4,469 nucleotides of DNA from a virus (lineage: Duplodnaviria; Heunggongvirae; Uroviricota; Caudoviricetes). A program made the translations under genes and the position numbers. Positions 1 to 4,469 of this stretch are shown here, piece by piece; the stretch's first letter is position 1, and each line of letters begins with the position of its first letter. The notes beneath the pieces are model-generated. The model made no database searches, was not told the DNA's origin, and saw nothing but the letters and a program-made list of their open reading frames with translations. Where the stretch lies: IMG/VR virus record IMGVR_UViG_2526164596_000006; one strand, written 5' to 3'.

Positions 1-1571
1 ACGGTCTTCGCTGGTATGGCATCCGCACGGTGGAGCCTCACCATGACGGCACCGTGCACTGGCATATGATGGTCTTTGCTCATCCGGAAGAAATCGACAG
101 CATCGTGGCCATCACCCGCGATATTGCCATTCAGGAAGACCGCCACGAGCTGGGCAATGATATTACTCCGCGCTTTAAGGCGGAGTATGTCGACGGCTCA
201 AAAGGCACACCAACCAGCTATATCGCGACCTACATCGGAAAAAACCTGGACAGCCGGGCCGTGGATGGCATCGACCCGAAAACAGGCAAACCACGCGTTG
301 ACCACGAAACCGGAAAATCAATGGCCGAGAGCGTGGAACGCGCCATCGGCTGGGCGCGCCTTCACCGGGTCCGCCAGTTCCAGTTCTTTGGCATTCCCTC
401 CCGTCAGGTGTGGCGTGAACTCCGCCGCCTTGCCAGCCAGATGGCACGCAGCCCGGAAGGCCCGCAACGGCTGAAGGATGACGCAATGGATGCGGTTCTT
501 GCTGCCGCTGATGCCGGGTGTTTTGCCACCTACATTGAAAAACAGGGTGGCGTACTTGTTCCGCGCAAGGACTACCTGATTCGCACCGCCTACGACCTCG
601 CAGATGAGCTGAACGATTACGGCGAACAGAGCGTACAGATTTACGGGATCTGGTCACCACTCATCGGGGAATCCTCCCGTGTGTGCACGCATCCGGATAA
701 CTGGAAGCTGGTAAGACGTAAACCGGAAGCGGAAGACAGCGCCCGCGAAAATGGTTTTGACCTTCAGGGCGGCCCTGCCGCCCCTTGGACTCGTGGCAAT
801 AACTGTCCCCGTGTACAGGAAACGAACAACAACGGGGCAGAACAGCCGGAAGAACGGCCAGCACCGTGGCCGCAGCTCCCTGATGGCGTTGAAGTGAACG
901 AATGGATGCGCTCACTGAAACGGCACGAACGCCGGGCGCTGATGCGTTCGCTTCATGATAAACAGGCAAAAAACAGCAGTGATGAAATGCAGAGCTGGAC
1001 ACAGAGCCGCAAACAGCAGCGGCCTTTGCCTGATAACCACGAATTACTCGCTAAAGAATGGCGGGAGTCTGCCGAATCTCTCGGCCTGCATATCGGTGAA
1101 CAGCAGATGCAGCACCTGTTACGGGGCGGCAGCCTGTACGTTGACGGCAGCATCATTGCACCGCAGGGATTTGAAATTGTACGCAAACCGGATACCCGAC
1201 CGGACAGCCGGATCACGCAGCTCTGGCAGCGCCTGAGCCGTAACCACGGCGTAAGCAGCACGGAGATCCGCCATAACCCGGTCGCCGGCTATCTGGCACA
1301 GCTGGGGGCATCAGACCACGAAGCCGCCGCACGCCTGGCATCCACACTTCAGCAGGACCAGAACACCATGAAAACCCCCGTTACCGTGCTTTCTGACATG
1401 CTGCGCGCCATCCGTGACGCAGAGCACGCACAGAGAATCAGTGAAACCACTGAACGCGCCCGCCGCAAAGCAGACCTGCTGCGGGGTAGCCTGACCAGTG
1501 GAAACAAAAAACAGACAGAAACGGGATTCACAAAACCCGTAAATGAGCAAAAAACGCGCCGCGATATATGA
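1..1571 (+). CDS. A: Replication initiation endonuclease, P2 gpA family (HUH rolling-circle nickase); 5' end lies outside the window, about 522 C-terminal codons present
   Basis: The frame beginning at nt 3 is open to the window edge; the ORF track's start at 30 is a GTG, so the true start is upstream. Stop is TGA at 1569-1571. The translation has HWH (nt 57-65) followed about 50 residues later by SYIATYIGK, with Tyr codons at 219-221 and 231-233 (Y-x3-Y), the catalytic arrangement of P2/186 A-type nickases. A long hydrophilic C-terminal region follows. Confidence 0.8.
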   Translation, partial: GLRWYGIRTVEPHHDGTVHWHMMVFAHPEEIDSIVAITRDIAIQEDRHELGNDITPRFKAEYVDGSKGTPTSYIATYIGKNLDSRAVDGIDPKTGKPRVDHETGKSMAESVERAIGWARLHRVRQFQFFGIPSRQVWRELRRLASQMARSPEGPQRLKDDAMDAVLAAADAGCFATYIEKQGGVLVPRKDYLIRTAYDLADELNDYGEQSVQIYGIWSPLIGESSRVCTHPDNWKLVRRKPEAEDSARENGFDLQGGPAAPWTRGNNCPRVQETNNNGAEQPEERPAPWPQLPDGVEVNEWMRSLKRHERRALMRSLHDKQAKNSSDEMQSWTQSRKQQRPLPDNHELLAKEWRESAESLGLHIGEQQMQHLLRGGSLYVDGSIIAPQGFEIVRKPDTRPDSRITQLWQRLSRNHGVSSTEIRHNPVAGYLAQLGASDHEAAARLASTLQQDQNTMKTPVTVLSDMLRAIRDAEHAQRISETTERARRKADLLRGSLTSGNKKQTETGFTKPVNEQKTRRDI

Positions 1572-1647: not shown

Positions 1648-2607
1648 ATGAAAATTTGTATCGACGACGGCTCCACCAACATCAAGCTGGCATGGACTGA
1701 GAACGGCGAACGCCGCAACGCCATCAGCCCGAACAGCTTCAAATCGGAATGGTCTGCGCCGTTCGGTGGCATGCAGCCCGCAAACTACATGCTTGATGGC
1801 GTGCGCTATGGTTTTGATCCGGTCAGCGATCGATTTGTCCAGACGACCGACACGCAATACCAGTACAGCGATGTGAATGTAATTGCCATTCATCACGCGC
1901 TGGTCAAATCAGGCATCACGCCACAGGAGGTGGATGTGGTTGTCACCCTGCCACTGAGCGAGTATTTCGACACAAACGCACAGCCGGACATGGCCAACAT
2001 CAACCGCAAAAAAGCGAACGTTATGCGCCCGGTGGAGTACCAGAACGGCGAAGCATTCACTATCCGTAACGTGCGGGTTATGCCTGAATCCATTCCGGCT
2101 GGCTTTAAGGCACTGGCTGACATGAGTCCGTTTGAATCCCTGCTGATTGTGGATTTGGGCGGAACCACGCTGGATGTGGCAAAGGTTCAGGGGCAACTGG
2201 CAGGTATCAGCCAGGTGTTTTGCGATCCACACGTAGGCGTTTCTCTGATGGCCGATGCCGTACTGTCGGTGATGGCCACTAACGGTATGCGCACCAGTCA
2301 CCACATCGCCAATACCATTATCGAACATCGCCATGATGAAGCCTGGCTGCGCCAGCACATCCACAATGACGCGCATTACGACAGCCTGATGGCGGTTATT
2401 CGTGAAAAGGAAGAAACACTGAAACAACGAGTGATCCGCGCGCTGGCGGGTTTTTCGGGTTACGGGCGGGTGATGGTTGTCGGTGGCGGGGCGGAGATTG
2501 TGGCACCCGCTATCCGCGAAGCCTGCGGAGTTAATGCGACTTTCATCGCGGACGGGGTGCCACAGTTTGCTCTGGTTAATGGGCTGTACGCAATGGACAA
2601 GGAGTAA
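1648..2607 (+). CDS. parM: ParM/StbA-family actin-like plasmid segregation ATPase (319 aa)
   Basis: ATG at 1648 preceded by AAGGA at 1635-1639. The N-terminus MKICIDDGSTNIKLAW...ISPNSFK...YQYSDVNVIAIHHAL closely parallels R1 ParM as I recall it. All three actin-fold nucleotide-binding motifs are present: IDDGSTNIK (phosphate 1), IVDLGGTTLDV (phosphate 2), MVVGGGAEIV (adenosine). Length matches ParM (~320 aa). Confidence 0.9.
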   Translation: MKICIDDGSTNIKLAWTENGERRNAISPNSFKSEWSAPFGGMQPANYMLDGVRYGFDPVSDRFVQTTDTQYQYSDVNVIAIHHALVKSGITPQEVDVVVTLPLSEYFDTNAQPDMANINRKKANVMRPVEYQNGEAFTIRNVRVMPESIPAGFKALADMSPFESLLIVDLGGTTLDVAKVQGQLAGISQVFCDPHVGVSLMADAVLSVMATNGMRTSHHIANTIIEHRHDEAWLRQHIHNDAHYDSLMAVIREKEETLKQRVIRALAGFSGYGRVMVVGGGAEIVAPAIREACGVNATFIADGVPQFALVNGLYAMDKE

Positions 2608-2611
2608 ACCA

Positions 2612-2923
2612 ATGACGACACCAACCAGACGGATAAGTTTCTATCTGAAGCCCGCCGCCGTCAAGAACGAAGGCGAAGCATGCACCTGGCTGGACAGCCT
2701 TACACCAGAAGCCCGCAAAAGCGGCCAACGTGTGGCTTTTCTGGCCGGGCTGGCACTTCTGAAAATGAATCCGGCAGAGGCTTACCGACTGGCTGCATGG
2801 GCTGACGATGAGGCGTTATCAGTGACACAAACCAGGACAGAACGCCCCGCGTCACAGCCAGTACCAACCTCACAGATAACCAGTCGGATGGCCGGAAATA
2901 TCAGGGCGTTATTTCCCGAATAA
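2612..2923 (+). CDS. parR: ParR/StbB-family centromere-binding adaptor (103 aa)
   Basis: ATG at 2612 sits 4 nt after the parM stop, with AAGGAG at 2599-2604. The ORF track's longer version starting at 2477 overlaps parM and is rejected. RRISFYLKPAAVKNEGEACTWLDSLTPEARKSGQRVAFLAGLALLKMNP parallels R1 ParR (RRTIAFKLNP...LDSIPQGERSRLNRAALTAGLALY, from memory), and the C-terminal IRALFPE matches ParR's LRSLFPKE. Gene order parM then parR is canonical. Confidence 0.8.
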   Translation: MTTPTRRISFYLKPAAVKNEGEACTWLDSLTPEARKSGQRVAFLAGLALLKMNPAEAYRLAAWADDEALSVTQTRTERPASQPVPTSQITSRMAGNIRALFPE

Positions 2924-2928
2924 CACAA

Positions 2929-2952
2929 CATCAGGGCGCATCCGCCCTGATG
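2929..2952 (+). promoter_or_regulatory. Perfect 10-bp-stem hairpin (4-nt loop) between parR and the downstream gene pair; possible attenuator, processing site or operator
   Basis: catcagggcg (2929-2938), loop catc (2939-2942), cgccctgatg (2943-2952). A third copy of the arm, atcagggcg, lies at 2900-2908 inside the last codons of parR, allowing an alternative pairing. The downstream tract is only weakly T-rich (actttaat), so this is not a textbook intrinsic terminator. Confidence 0.4.
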
Positions 2953-2986
2953 ACTTTAATCCGGGAACATAAACAAGGGGGACACA

Positions 2987-3319
2987 ATGCAACACATTGA
3001 CAGAGAAAAAGCGCAGCGACTGATTGAGCGGATGGAAGCGCTGGCGAAAGAAGAAAATGTCAACATCCAAAAAATAGCTGAATGTGGCCAGATAGTTCTT
3101 CGTCGTGAAAAAGACCTCAAACAACTGATGTCTGGCGAAACCAGCAAAACATGGACTTCAGGCGAGGAGACGATTTATTGCAGCTTCTGCAATAAATCTC
3201 AGTACGAAGTCACAAAGGTGATTGCCGGACCGTCTGTTTGCATCTGCAATGAGTGCGTGGATTTGTGCAATGAAATTATCAGGAGAGAAGTGACAGACAA
3301 AAAGGGAAAAAACGCATGA
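2987..3319 (+). CDS. Small protein with a C-terminal ClpX-type C4 zinc-binding domain (110 aa); N-terminal ~60 aa of unknown function
   Basis: ATG at 2987 with a strong SD (AAGGGGG at 2975-2981). Residues [40 protein letters not shown] align almost residue-for-residue with E. coli ClpX N-domain [40 protein letters not shown] (from memory), conserving all four Zn-ligand Cys (CSFC ... CNEC). No AAA+ module follows; the protein ends 15 residues later. Confidence 0.8.
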
Positions 3320-3654
3320 ACAGAAAACAAAAACAAGAGTTGAAATACTTTTTACGTAAAGAAATTGCCAGGCTTGAAGATGCAGAATCACAATCATCAG
3401 AAATTCCGTTCGGAATGGATATCAACGACGCCCGTATGCTCCAGGCATACCGCATAGCTCAGGCTGCACTACAGGCAAAACCGTCAGATGGACTGGTTAG
3501 AGCAGTACGATTCTATGAACTGGTAAAGCGTGAGAATCCGCCAGCCGAAACCGGAGCATGGAAAGACGCTGTTGACTGGGTACTCAAAGAGGCTTGTCAG
3601 GTTGTAAACACTGGCATCAAAGGAGACCTAGCCCAGCCTGCATCAAAGCTATAG
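3316..3654 (+). CDS. Hypothetical protein (112 aa), translationally coupled to the ClpX-zinc-finger gene
   Basis: Its ATG (3316-3318) overlaps the upstream TGA (3317-3319) as ATGA; SD-like AGGGAA at 3304-3309. Predicted to be largely helical and charged ([24 protein letters not shown]...). I recognise no domain. Stop is TAG at 3652-3654, followed directly by a terminator. Confidence 0.6.
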
Positions 3655-3664
3655 AAATGAGCCA

Positions 3665-3692
3665 AAACGCCCTCTTCCAGGGCGTTTATTTC
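3665..3692 (+). terminator. Rho-independent terminator closing the parM-parR-zf-hyp cassette
   Basis: aaacgccct (3665-3673), loop cttcc, agggcgttt (3679-3687), then a T-rich tail (atttc). It starts 10 nt after the gene-4 stop. On the minus strand the hairpin is followed by TTTTGG, so it may act in both directions. Confidence 0.7.
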
Positions 3693-3694
3693 AA

Positions 3695-3721
3695 TGCACA
3701 ATAGTGCACAAATTTGCACAA
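3695..3721. repeat. Three direct TGCACAA heptamers at exact 10-bp phasing (a fourth copy at 3787-3793)
   Basis: TGCACAA at 3695-3701, 3705-3711 and 3715-3721, followed by a T7 tract. Helical phasing suggests a binding site for a multimeric DNA-binding protein, for example in packaging/cos recognition or regulation. Confidence 0.5.
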
Positions 3722-3785
3722 TTTTTTTGAACGACTTTTTGCCCTTCCGGCCCGCGTGGCGGCTGGATCCGTCAGGGATCCGTGC

Positions 3786-3818
3786 GTGCACAAAAAAACG
3801 CGTTTTTTCTGCGCGCAG
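3786..3818. repeat. Cluster of perfect palindromes in the cos-proximal intergenic region
   Basis: gtgcac (3786-3791), a 16-bp perfect palindrome aaaaaacgcgtttttt (3793-3808), and an abutting 10-bp perfect palindrome ctgcgcgcag (3809-3818). Preceded by ggatccgtcagggatcc (3765-3781) and a GC-rich stretch containing gcgtggcgg (3754-3762), which partly resembles the 5' part of the 186/P2 cohesive-end sequence as I recall it. Confidence 0.5.
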
Positions 3819-4092
3819 GTGACGGGGGAACAGCCCGCGTTTCAGGGGGTAAATAGCATTCCCTGAACGATGTCGCAGAGATACAACAGAATGGCTGTAT
3901 TTCTCACGCTGAGCGTGAAAAAGACGTGAGGGCTTTTGATTTGATGGGGTGAAAGGTAAGGCCGTCAAAATCGCACTGAGACGGCGAGAACATGCAGTCA
4001 ACGCGGTGGGATTGCGTAAGAGTCTGACTGTCGATGATGGCAATCAGCAGGAAAGCGTCGTGAAATTATCTGATTGATACAGGAGCTGGAGA

Positions 4093-4121
4093 GCCGGGGC
4101 ATAAATTTTTTATGCCCCGGC
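4093..4121 (-). terminator. GC-rich hairpin about 25 nt downstream of the portal-like gene stop; candidate terminator or packaging-region structure
   Basis: gccggggcat (4093-4102), A/T loop aaatttttt, atgccccggc (4112-4121); the stem can extend to 13 bp. The flanking sequence is not strongly U-rich on either strand, so terminator function is uncertain. Confidence 0.4.
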
Positions 4122-4145
4122 GAAGCAGCAGACAAGCGAAGCGCG

Positions 4146-4469
4146 TCAGGATGTGGGCTGGGTGTCTAACAGTGCGTAAGGGTTAAAGCGGATCACCTTT
4201 TCGCCAAGCCAGTCATTGATGTGCTTCATGGCCTCCATGACGGGCATCAGTTCGTTAATTGCGTAAACCCGCGCGGCCTTCTCCACATCACCAAACGCAC
4301 TTTTTTCGCCCGGCATCGCCCCCATCAGTTGCGGCGGAACGCGGTGCGCAGCCAGCACATCATCACGGGATGCCGCCTTAACATTCATGAACTCATCCTT
4401 TGCGGTGATCTGCTGGAACGGCAAAATTTGCACCCCCTCTTTGCCCCCGTTGGGCGCATGGATGAGCAC
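4146..4469 (-). CDS. Phage portal protein, P2 gpQ-like, C-terminal fragment (N-terminus beyond the window end)
   Basis: The minus-strand frame is open to the window edge (first in-window codon GTG); stop is TGA (plus-strand tca at 4146-4148). AHRVPPQLMG resembles the (F/G)VPPxLLG motif I recall from Phage_portal-family proteins. Convergent orientation and position after the A-distal non-coding region match P2 gene Q. Confidence 0.55.
   Translation of the reverse strand: MLIHAPNGGKEGVQILPFQQITAKDEFMNVKAASRDDVLAAHRVPPQLMGAMPGEKSAFGDVEKAARVYAINELMPVMEAMKHINDWLGEKVIRFNPYALLDTQPTS

Follow-up and report, generated by a model that had tools for sequence, protein, structure and literature searches.

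We analyzed a 4,469-bp stretch of viral DNA (the window; IMG/VR record IMGVR_UViG_2526164596_000006, Caudoviricetes), with a focus on two adjacent open reading frames (ORFs), gene 3 and gene 4, that occupy positions 2987 to 3654. Over its full length, the window is 97.4% identical to Escherichia phage P88, a P2-like phage (Xuanwuvirus, Peduoviridae), and a chromosome of E. coli O145 matches the interval from 2987 to 3654 with 100% identity. The two genes are located directly after the partition genes parMR in the variable, cos-proximal cargo hotspot of P88-like phages, which is bordered by the replication gene A (gpA) and the portal gene Q (gpQ). The stretch from parR to the portal gene differs among relatives of this phage, in agreement with an initial annotation of the sequence that had placed the pair in a variable cargo locus. 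The same annotation had described the pair as richer in A/T than the flanking genes, and this is reflected in the guanine-plus-cytosine (GC) content: gene 3 has a value of 0.441 and gene 4 one of 0.463, as opposed to 0.578 for gpA, 0.550 for parM, and 0.554 for parR. Rousset et al. (PMC9122126; see also PMC13586616) describe the gpA-gpQ locus of P2-like phages as a hotspot both for genetic diversity and for anti-phage systems. Rousset et al. also report a putative partition system at this position in about one-quarter of P2-like phages, with the suggestion that such phages are possibly maintained as plasmids, and count partition genes and toxins among the non-defense cargo (PMC9122126). The features of the window are given in Table 1. 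The stretch of ~490 bp between gene 4 and the portal gene contains no convincing gene, and no RNA families (Rfam, E<=0.1) or tRNAs were found in the window.

Table 1. Features of the 4,469-bp window and the matches that identify them (aa, amino acids)
Feature	Position	Strand	Evidence
Replication gene A (P2-type), 3' part; left border of the cargo hotspot	30..1571	+	Pfam Phage_GPA E=1.7e-29; phrog_91 E=2e-144; P88 annotation "replication endonuclease"
parM, actin-like plasmid segregation ATPase	1648..2607	+	Pfam StbA_N E=2.7e-82; ParM C-terminal domain E=1e-68
parR-type partition adaptor (Plasmid_stab_B)	2612..2923	+	Pfam PF10784 E=4.5e-24; phrog_2515 E=6.5e-58
Hairpin between parR and gene 3, perfect 10-bp stem and 4-nt loop	2929..2952	.	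No T-run on the + strand
Gene 3, whole ORF, 110 aa; free-standing ClpX N-domain protein	2987..3319	+	ORF call; phrog_6797 E=1.1e-57
Gene 3 residues 1-60, family-specific helical N-terminal region and linker	2987..3166	+	No Pfam/PDB match; kept at 22-60% identity in phrog_6797-type relatives
Gene 3 residues 64-99, ClpX-type C4 zinc-binding domain	3176..3283	+	PF06689 E=2.9e-16; PDB 1OVX, 2DS5
Gene 4, whole ORF, 112 aa	3316..3654	+	ORF call
Gene 4 residues 1-56, N-terminal helical module ending ...AQAALQAKP	3316..3483	+	Alignment A1; pN/pS 0.15
Gene 4 residues 57-104, conserved 48-aa C-terminal domain	3484..3626	+	phrog_660, phrog_250
Gene-boundary linker ATCAAAGGAGA, then deletion junction (3626/3628), then 9-codon tail LAQPASKL + stop from another gene	3616..3654	+	Alignment to L031
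Hairpin 3' of gene 4, 9-bp stem then TTTATTT	3665..3687	+	Repeat scan
Portal gene Q, 3' end; right border of the cargo hotspot	4146..4469	-	phrog_68 E=4.1e-43; P88 annotation portal protein

The initial annotation read gene 3 as a near-copy of the zinc-binding domain (ZBD) at the N terminus of ClpX without the AAA+ body, preceded by an extra region of about 60 residues, and expected a zf-C4_ClpX match at residues ~60 to 100. We found this match at residues 64 to 99 (PF06689, 59.5 bits; cut-off, 27), and the E. coli ClpX ZBD structures 1OVX and 2DS5 were matched with E-values of ~1e-17 to 4e-18. Within a 39-residue core, 30 residues (77%) are identical to those of E. coli ClpX. Gene 3 shares with ClpX the C4 zinc ribbon, all of the zinc-ligand cysteines (C65, C68, C87, and C90, spaced CxxC...CxxC), and the hydrophobic patch, in which F67 and I97 are the counterparts of ClpX F16 and I46. 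The full-length clpX model TIGR00382 matched gene 3 only at model positions 6 to 52, with 48.5 bits relative to a cut-off of 370.75. Because full ClpX models match over only their first ~50 positions and far under threshold, gene 3 does not include an ATPase body. Judged from its sequence, gene 3 is not a ClpX, as its 110 residues leave out the AAA+ module with the pore loops and the IGF loop that docks on ClpP. The gene also differs from clpX in being phage encoded and A/T-rich, and the protein lacks a linker to an AAA+ ring, which means that it cannot itself unfold or deliver substrates. The remaining difference from ClpX is the family-specific 60-residue N-terminal region, for which neither Pfam nor the PDB gave a match. 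AlphaFold2, run on the single gene 3 sequence, returned a predicted local distance difference test score (pLDDT) of 52.5 and modeled this region as three helices with low confidence (pLDDT ~50).

Gene 3 and gene 4 are both real genes, since close alleles are under purifying selection, with ratios of nonsynonymous to synonymous polymorphism (pN/pS) of 0.42 for gene 3 (22 alleles) and 0.28 for gene 4. A strong ribosome-binding site, AAGGGGGA, lies 7 nt 5' of the gene 3 ATG. A promoter scan found no sigma-70-like promoter between parR and gene 3, and the T-rich hairpin downstream of gene 4 is likely the transcription terminator of the gene train. This combination suggests that gene 3 is transcribed by read-through, probably from parMR or an early operon. 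Within gene 3, the first CxxC codons coincide with an inverted repeat (positions 3172 to 3198) whose perfect 12-bp arms (GATTTATTGCAG/CTGCAATAAATC) are 3 nt apart and which may be due to chance.

The family to which gene 3 belongs is already represented in databases. Residues 1 to 106 align with positions 5 to 107 of the 107-position phrog_6797 profile; gene 3 is thus a full-length member of PHROG 6797, without differences from members such as P88 gp19 (99% identical) and D6 orf93, and the family has no assigned function. NCBI labels these proteins "ClpX C4-type zinc finger protein," and they are often mislabeled "carboxylate--amine ligase." When 1.84 billion cluster representatives (clusters at 50% identity) were searched exhaustively with HMMER, ~11,500 clusters had ClpX-type zinc fingers, and in only a few (P0187, P0197, P0254, P0262, and P0263) was the N-terminal region of gene 3 also covered. 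In the family alignment (A2), the four cysteines and F67 are invariant, position 97 is I or V except for L in P0254, and most of the rest of the ZBD is invariant or nearly so. The helical pattern of the N-terminal region is recognizable at 22 to 60% identity, so the extra region is a conserved property of the family. Over the 39-residue core, the family ZBDs are 72 to 90% identical to E. coli ClpX, except for P0262, and are generally nearer to ClpX than to one another.

Relatives of gene 3 are found in several genomic contexts. P0187, P0254, and the Salmonella protein P0018 (55%, 43%, and 43% identical to gene 3, respectively) come from different P2-like prophages, in each of which the protein is encoded by the last plus-strand gene of the gpA-portal locus, with no parMR or gene 4 relative nearby; the gpA proteins of the P0018 loci are 34 to 70% identical to that of the window where measured. 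Gene 3 homologs at 39 to 55% identity are the sole gene common to these otherwise different gpA-portal loci, and gene 3 occurs at this position in at least five distinct P2-like lineages. Homologs with 47 to 52% identity are carried by the P1-like phage-plasmid D6 and by PhiR41_1/CMS-2020a, where they are embedded in trains of small early genes of the eae/Ea22/EaA type. Full-length homologs are also present on 94 non-mobilizable plasmids of 85 to 113 kb from Escherichia, Salmonella, and Shigella. The presence of homologs in P2-like loci without parMR and gene 4, in D6, in PhiR41_1, and on these plasmids supports the autonomy of gene 3. In PhiR41_1, a UmuD homolog is encoded ~3.5 kb downstream of the gene 3 homolog in the same train (L056 7820-8209), which may be a coincidence; UmuD and UmuD' use the ClpX N-domain. 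Beyond the family, unrelated temperate phages also have orphan proteins consisting only of a ZBD; the nin region of Pseudomonas phage PP9W2, for example, encodes one of 65 aa. With regard to whether orphan fingers follow the ClpX of their own host, the scores of the Pseudomonas phage protein were roughly the same for E. coli ClpX as for the remaining ClpX chains of the PDB. Such free-standing fingers (phrog_12435, phrog_5259, and the PP9W2 protein) resemble gene 3 in being stand-alone ClpX-like ZBDs from early or accessory regions of temperate phages and differ from it in having no conserved N-terminal region beside the ZBD and in their lower identity.

The initial annotation further regarded gene 3 and gene 4 as a translationally coupled two-gene module. 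The overlap on which this was based is present, with the TGA stop codon of gene 3 (3317-3319) overlapping the ATG of gene 4 (3316-3318) as ATGA in ...CGCATGAAC.... To this can be added frequent adjacency. Among 5,426 complete E. coli genomes, the gene 3 core was found in 112, adjoining the N-terminal module of gene 4 in 87 and accompanied by a complete gene 4 in 72, and the two adjoin in 27 of the 41 IMG/VR loci that reach past gene 3 (42 loci have a close gene 3 homolog). An obligate system of this kind, in which the proteins would act as sensor and effector or as decoy and partner, is nevertheless at odds with how often each gene occurs without the other: 25 of the 112 E. coli carriers of gene 3 lack gene 4, and the N-terminal module of gene 4, found in 182 to 184 genomes, is without gene 3 in ~97 of 184. 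The IMG/VR loci gave a similar picture, with gene 3 followed by a complete gene 4 in 23 of 41, by the gene 4 N-terminal module joined to another C-terminal domain in 4, and by unrelated genes in 14. Among the unrelated genes are those for a convergent Doc/Phd pair, a 174-aa protein together with a genuine Ead_Ea22 protein (PF13935, E=1e-32), or proteins of 118 and 87 aa. Conversely, a P2-like prophage without parMR (L007) has gene 4 and no gene 3, and in another locus (L008) gene 4 directly follows parR, gene 3 having been deleted (window positions 3012 to 3290 are missing).

No diverged gene 3 homolog that we examined, whether in Salmonella and other P2-like prophages, D6, or PhiR41_1, has a gene 4 relative nearby. 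In PhiR41_1 and L060, gene 3 homologs are linked to unrelated downstream genes by the same 4-nt overlap, which makes the overlap a generic feature of these gene trains. In addition, because the linkage of gene 3 to gene 4 is confined to a single lineage at 89 to 100% identity, it is explicable by shared descent. Nor did PADLOC-DB v2 point to a two-gene system, as gene 3 had no match and gene 4 had only one that is not credible (PDC-M28C, E=0.013, 12.3 bits). We consider a coupled system highly unlikely, and an obligate pair is rejected by the distribution. Gene 3 most likely acts on its own, with gene 4 as an unrelated neighbor. In a common arrangement, gene 3 is followed by the convergent phd/doc toxin-antitoxin pair (L006 4001-5254; also L037-L039 and L041). 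Phd of phage P1 is a ClpXP substrate, which, if it applies here, would make this neighbor of interest for a decoy function of gene 3.

A further argument against a two-gene system comes from gene 4 itself, whose two halves recombine independently. The initial annotation had described gene 4 as a 112-aa protein with no recognizable domain. It is true that no Pfam, NCBIfam, or credible PADLOC match was obtained; however, gene 4 is not an orphan, since it matches phrog_26213, phrog_660, and phrog_250 (E-values of 2.6e-28 and 4.4e-28 for family profiles) and has more than 590 homologs among enterobacterial prophage proteins. According to its alignments, gene 4 encodes a separate protein, made up of a helical head and a 48-aa tail domain, and belongs to a large prophage family in which domains are shuffled. 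Members of this family (alignment A1, with 29 nearly invariant columns) have a variable N-terminal helix ending in ...ALASLEAEP, a variable middle, and a near-invariant 48-aa C-terminal domain. In gene 4 of the window, ...AQAALQAKP aligns with ...ALASLEAEP of the other members, and the middle part is absent. The 48-aa domain is joined to many different N termini, some with Ead_Ea22 (PF13935), and its DNA is ~90% identical in lambdoid phages and Uetakevirus. The N-terminal module, in turn, is joined to either of two C-terminal domains and occurs both where gene 3 is present and where it is not. An AlphaFold2 model built with 38 homologs contained four helices (pLDDT 69.7), and a Foldseek search of this model against the PDB gave nothing at E<=0.001, only generic helical bundles.

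The known systems close to gene 4 include the lambdoid ea-type accessory trains and Ead/Ea22-like proteins. They share with it the 48-aa domain, which is also found in carriers of PF13935, and the boundary linker; the N-terminal module aligns with non-PF13935 members that end in an ...LEAEP-like motif; and a bona fide Ead_Ea22 protein stands in the place of gene 4 in sister phages. Gene 4 differs from these proteins in falling under every Pfam threshold, PF13935 included, in lacking the middle segment of most members, and in belonging to a train in a P2-like rather than a lambdoid phage.

The version of gene 4 in the window and in P88 is, according to our alignments, a deletion chimera. Gene 4 is usually 104 aa long and ends in ...GIKGE, compared with 112 aa in the window. 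Window positions 2900 to 3626 align with positions 5914 to 6640 of a longer locus, L031, and positions 3628 to 4145 align with L031 7648 to 8165. Because the two flanking alignments are split in L031 (6640 versus 7648), we conclude that ~1 kb was lost from the window at the end of gene 4. The lost segment held genes for 165 aa (weakly Mom-like) and 87 aa and the greater part of a gene for 86 aa, and it is from this last gene that the final nine codons of gene 4 (LAQPASKL + stop) are derived. The junction falls on a conserved boundary sequence, ATCAAAGGAGAGTGA, that encodes ...IKGE-stop and provides the next gene with its Shine-Dalgarno site. This sequence is found at gene ends in P88-like trains, in PhiR41_1 (immediately 5' of the gene 3 homolog), in D6, and in Uetakevirus, with sites of the form (G)CATCAAAGGAGAGTGA(n)ATG at L031 6630 and 7124, L002 4116 and 4610, L056 3964, L009 8885 and 9090, and L005 3130. 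The recurrence of these linkers at gene ends points to cassette-like shuffling, in which the boundary sequence probably serves as a recombination joint.

Two observations concern the surroundings of gene 4. In longer trains, the 165-aa gene that follows it (L002 4126-4623; L031 6640-7137) matches the Mom family (PF25680, E=1.1e-4) with 22.4 bits, below the cut-off of 27.1, which hints at a DNA-modification-type acyltransferase in the hotspot. On 143 contigs, and also in E. coli PO06021 H134 and H146, the N terminus of ParM is fused to gene 4 in a 191-aa protein (P0075). This frequent deletion variant lacks the 3' end of parM together with parR, gene 3, and roughly the initial one-third of gene 4.

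Because gene 3 follows parMR, it could alternatively be an accessory component of the ParMR partition cassette. In each of the 42 IMG/VR loci, gene 3 starts 66 nt past the point at which the parR match ends, and the promoter scan suggested no separate promoter for it. The distribution of the two is nevertheless very different: parR DNA occurs in 1,273 of the 5,426 E. coli genomes (on the chromosome at 1,410 of 1,412 places), as opposed to 112 genomes with gene 3. P88-like sister phages have parMR followed by other cargo and no gene 3, and P2-like phages without parMR have gene 3 homologs. These differences indicate that gene 3 is cargo beside parMR rather than part of it, and that parMR loci do not have the pair as a constant component. 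A fixed accessory role is rejected by this distribution, and we regard a partition function of gene 3 as extremely improbable. In P88-like loci, parM is conserved at 97 to 100% protein identity, and a repeat search detected no iterons upstream of parM. The "plasmid" partition cassette (window 1648-2923) is here a constituent of integrated prophages.

How might an isolated ClpX N-domain act? In ClpX, SspB and RssB dock on the ZBD, which is also needed for the degradation of lambda O, and the hydrophobic patch around F16/I46 is the common binding site for lambda O, SspB, RssB, and trigger factor (PMC7804408). A separate report describes inhibition of RssB-mediated sigma-S degradation by ClpXP in vitro when purified free ClpX ZBD was added in trans (PMC7226468). 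We therefore favor, with a confidence somewhat below even, a reading in which gene 3 and gene 4 are two adjacent, independent accessory genes in a shuffling train of small, translationally linked cassettes and the gene 3 protein is a competitor or decoy for ClpX ligands. The protein would fold as a ClpX-like zinc-ribbon dimer that retains the hydrophobic docking patch (F67/I97). We infer that this putative dimer, with zinc bound, could bind adaptors of the SspB and RssB type as well as substrates that depend on the N-domain, for example, lambda O or MuA. By competing for these ligands, it could shift the targets of ClpXP degradation during phage gene expression, with the N-terminal region adding specificity or oligomerization. 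The mechanism as such, namely, diversion of ClpX N-domain ligands from ClpXP, is a tentative proposal that we place well under an even chance. In its widest form the idea is doubtful. It would make the gene 3 family (phrog_6797) the first case to be described of a virus mimicking the substrate- and adaptor-docking domain of ClpX. Temperate phages of enterobacteria, both P2-like phages and phage-plasmids of ~108 kb (P1/D6-like and others), would have captured this domain and would use it to titrate adaptors or N-domain-dependent substrates, with target specificity given by the N-terminal region.

Several points weigh against a decoy that acts independently of gene 4. The binding steps are drawn from sequence comparison and the literature, and the AlphaFold2 model of gene 3 is of low confidence (pLDDT 52). 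The ClpX-type fold may be a generic dimerization or peptide-binding module, as the ~11,500 clusters include many short, tandem, or fused proteins unrelated to proteolysis. The greater closeness of the family ZBDs to ClpX than to each other fits mimicry and fits equally a star phylogeny from a slowly evolving captured ancestor, and the core of P0262 is only 54% identical to ClpX. The gene 3 allele of the window has a cysteine, C85 (3239-3241), at a position occupied by Tyr, Phe, or Trp in ClpX and most relatives. Finally, the linkage of gene 3 to gene 4 reaches 78% within close P88-like relatives, and the two may have a facultative functional interaction. Another cysteine, C32 (window 3068-3070), lies in the N-terminal region and is semi-conserved in the family; C32 and C85 could constitute an extra metal or redox site or could be neutral.

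The same features of gene 3 allow for other functions. One is that of an adaptor or redirector, in which the gene 3 ZBD would pair with the ClpX ZBD or dock on ClpX and the N-terminal helices would bring a phage or host protein to ClpXP or shield one from it. The family-wide conservation of the N-terminal region suggests a ligand of its own, conservation is strong in the helix and hairpin residues of the ClpX ZBD, and SPO1 Gp53, an adaptor-like phage modulator of ClpCP (PMC6873191), provides a precedent. On the other hand, no ligand is known, and the ZBD dimers in ClpX are reported to be constitutive, so that exchange with a free ZBD may be slow. We consider this function unlikely.

The genomic position of gene 3 raises the question of prophage defense or superinfection exclusion, whereby interference with ClpX would block phages that need ClpX or its N-domain, for example, in remodeling of the Mu transpososome or turnover of lambda O. 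The cargo of the P2 gpA-gpQ hotspot includes old, tin, and many defense systems, and gene 3 and gene 4 share with it the locus and the pattern of rapid replacement. The enrichment of this hotspot for anti-phage systems, as described in the literature (PMC9122126, PMC13586616), and the recurrence of gene 3 there in five or more P2-like lineages would fit such a role. The window genes, however, have no similarity to a catalogued defense protein in PADLOC and look more like early-region morons than typical defense operons; the hotspot also carries partition genes and toxins; and the phage-plasmid homologs reside among early ea-type genes, not in a defense island. Moreover, the arrangement "StbA + Plasmid_stab_B + zf-C4_ClpX + hypothetical" appears in Rousset et al. 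2022 in a supplementary table only, and ClpX is absent from the main text (PMC9122126). A defensive function is thus improbable on present evidence.

It is also conceivable that the ZBD is merely a zinc-ribbon dimerization or peptide-binding module of a small regulator unconnected with ClpXP, which might, for example, control lysogeny or the development of the phage. Thousands of architectures other than ClpX make use of the fold, tandem repeats and fusions among them, and gene 3 homologs have no conserved ClpP-related or adaptor-related neighbor. Gene 3 also falls among lambdoid "ea"-type genes of the exo-xis kind, whose known effects are regulatory. Conservation relative to host ClpX is nonetheless unusually high, reaching 90% over 39 residues with the ligand patch included, and exceeds what a generic scaffold would need. 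To a regulator of this kind we assign only a small probability.

The two-gene module is not real, and the locus is not to be reported as a new two-gene defense system, since gene 4 is a neighbor rather than a partner. What the locus offers is a single gene that is an uncharacterized candidate phage modulator of a host AAA+ protease. In the literature on ClpX-finger phage proteins, PF06689, and phage ClpXP inhibitors, we found no functional study of any phage ClpX-finger protein. If gene 3 is a decoy, it would resemble known phage modulators of host AAA+ proteases, such as SPO1 Gp53 acting on ClpCP (PMC6873191), in being a small phage protein that retunes a host protease. Of Gp53, T4 PinA, and T7 Gp4.5, none is known to have been captured from the substrate-docking domain of the protease on which it acts. 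T4 PinA and T7 Gp4.5 act on Lon. ClpXP controls lambda O, MuA, sigma-S, and ssrA-tagged proteins, as well as several antitoxins. A phage-made ClpX docking domain, if confirmed in this role, would be a simple and so far undescribed viral way to retune host proteolysis. The captured N-domain might then reprogram ClpXP while the phage develops or shut out competitors that depend on ClpX, Mu and lambda for example, and gene 3 could serve as a natural, genetically encoded tool for blocking ClpXP in its N-domain-dependent branch alone. Members of this small family are found in three types of temperate phage or phage-plasmid of E. coli and Salmonella, and the family is cleanly testable as a single gene.

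ClpX-type zinc fingers also occur in other settings. Many uncharacterized proteins, such as P0183, P0184, P0195, P0222, and P0191, are among those with two to four tandem fingers. In actinobacterial orphans, a ClpX-type finger is fused to a C-terminal region that looks helix-turn-helix-like by eye. One 639-aa protein combines two near-perfect copies of the ClpX ZBD with a long N-terminal region in which, by eye, Hsp70/actin-like ATPase motifs and Sel1-like repeats can be seen.

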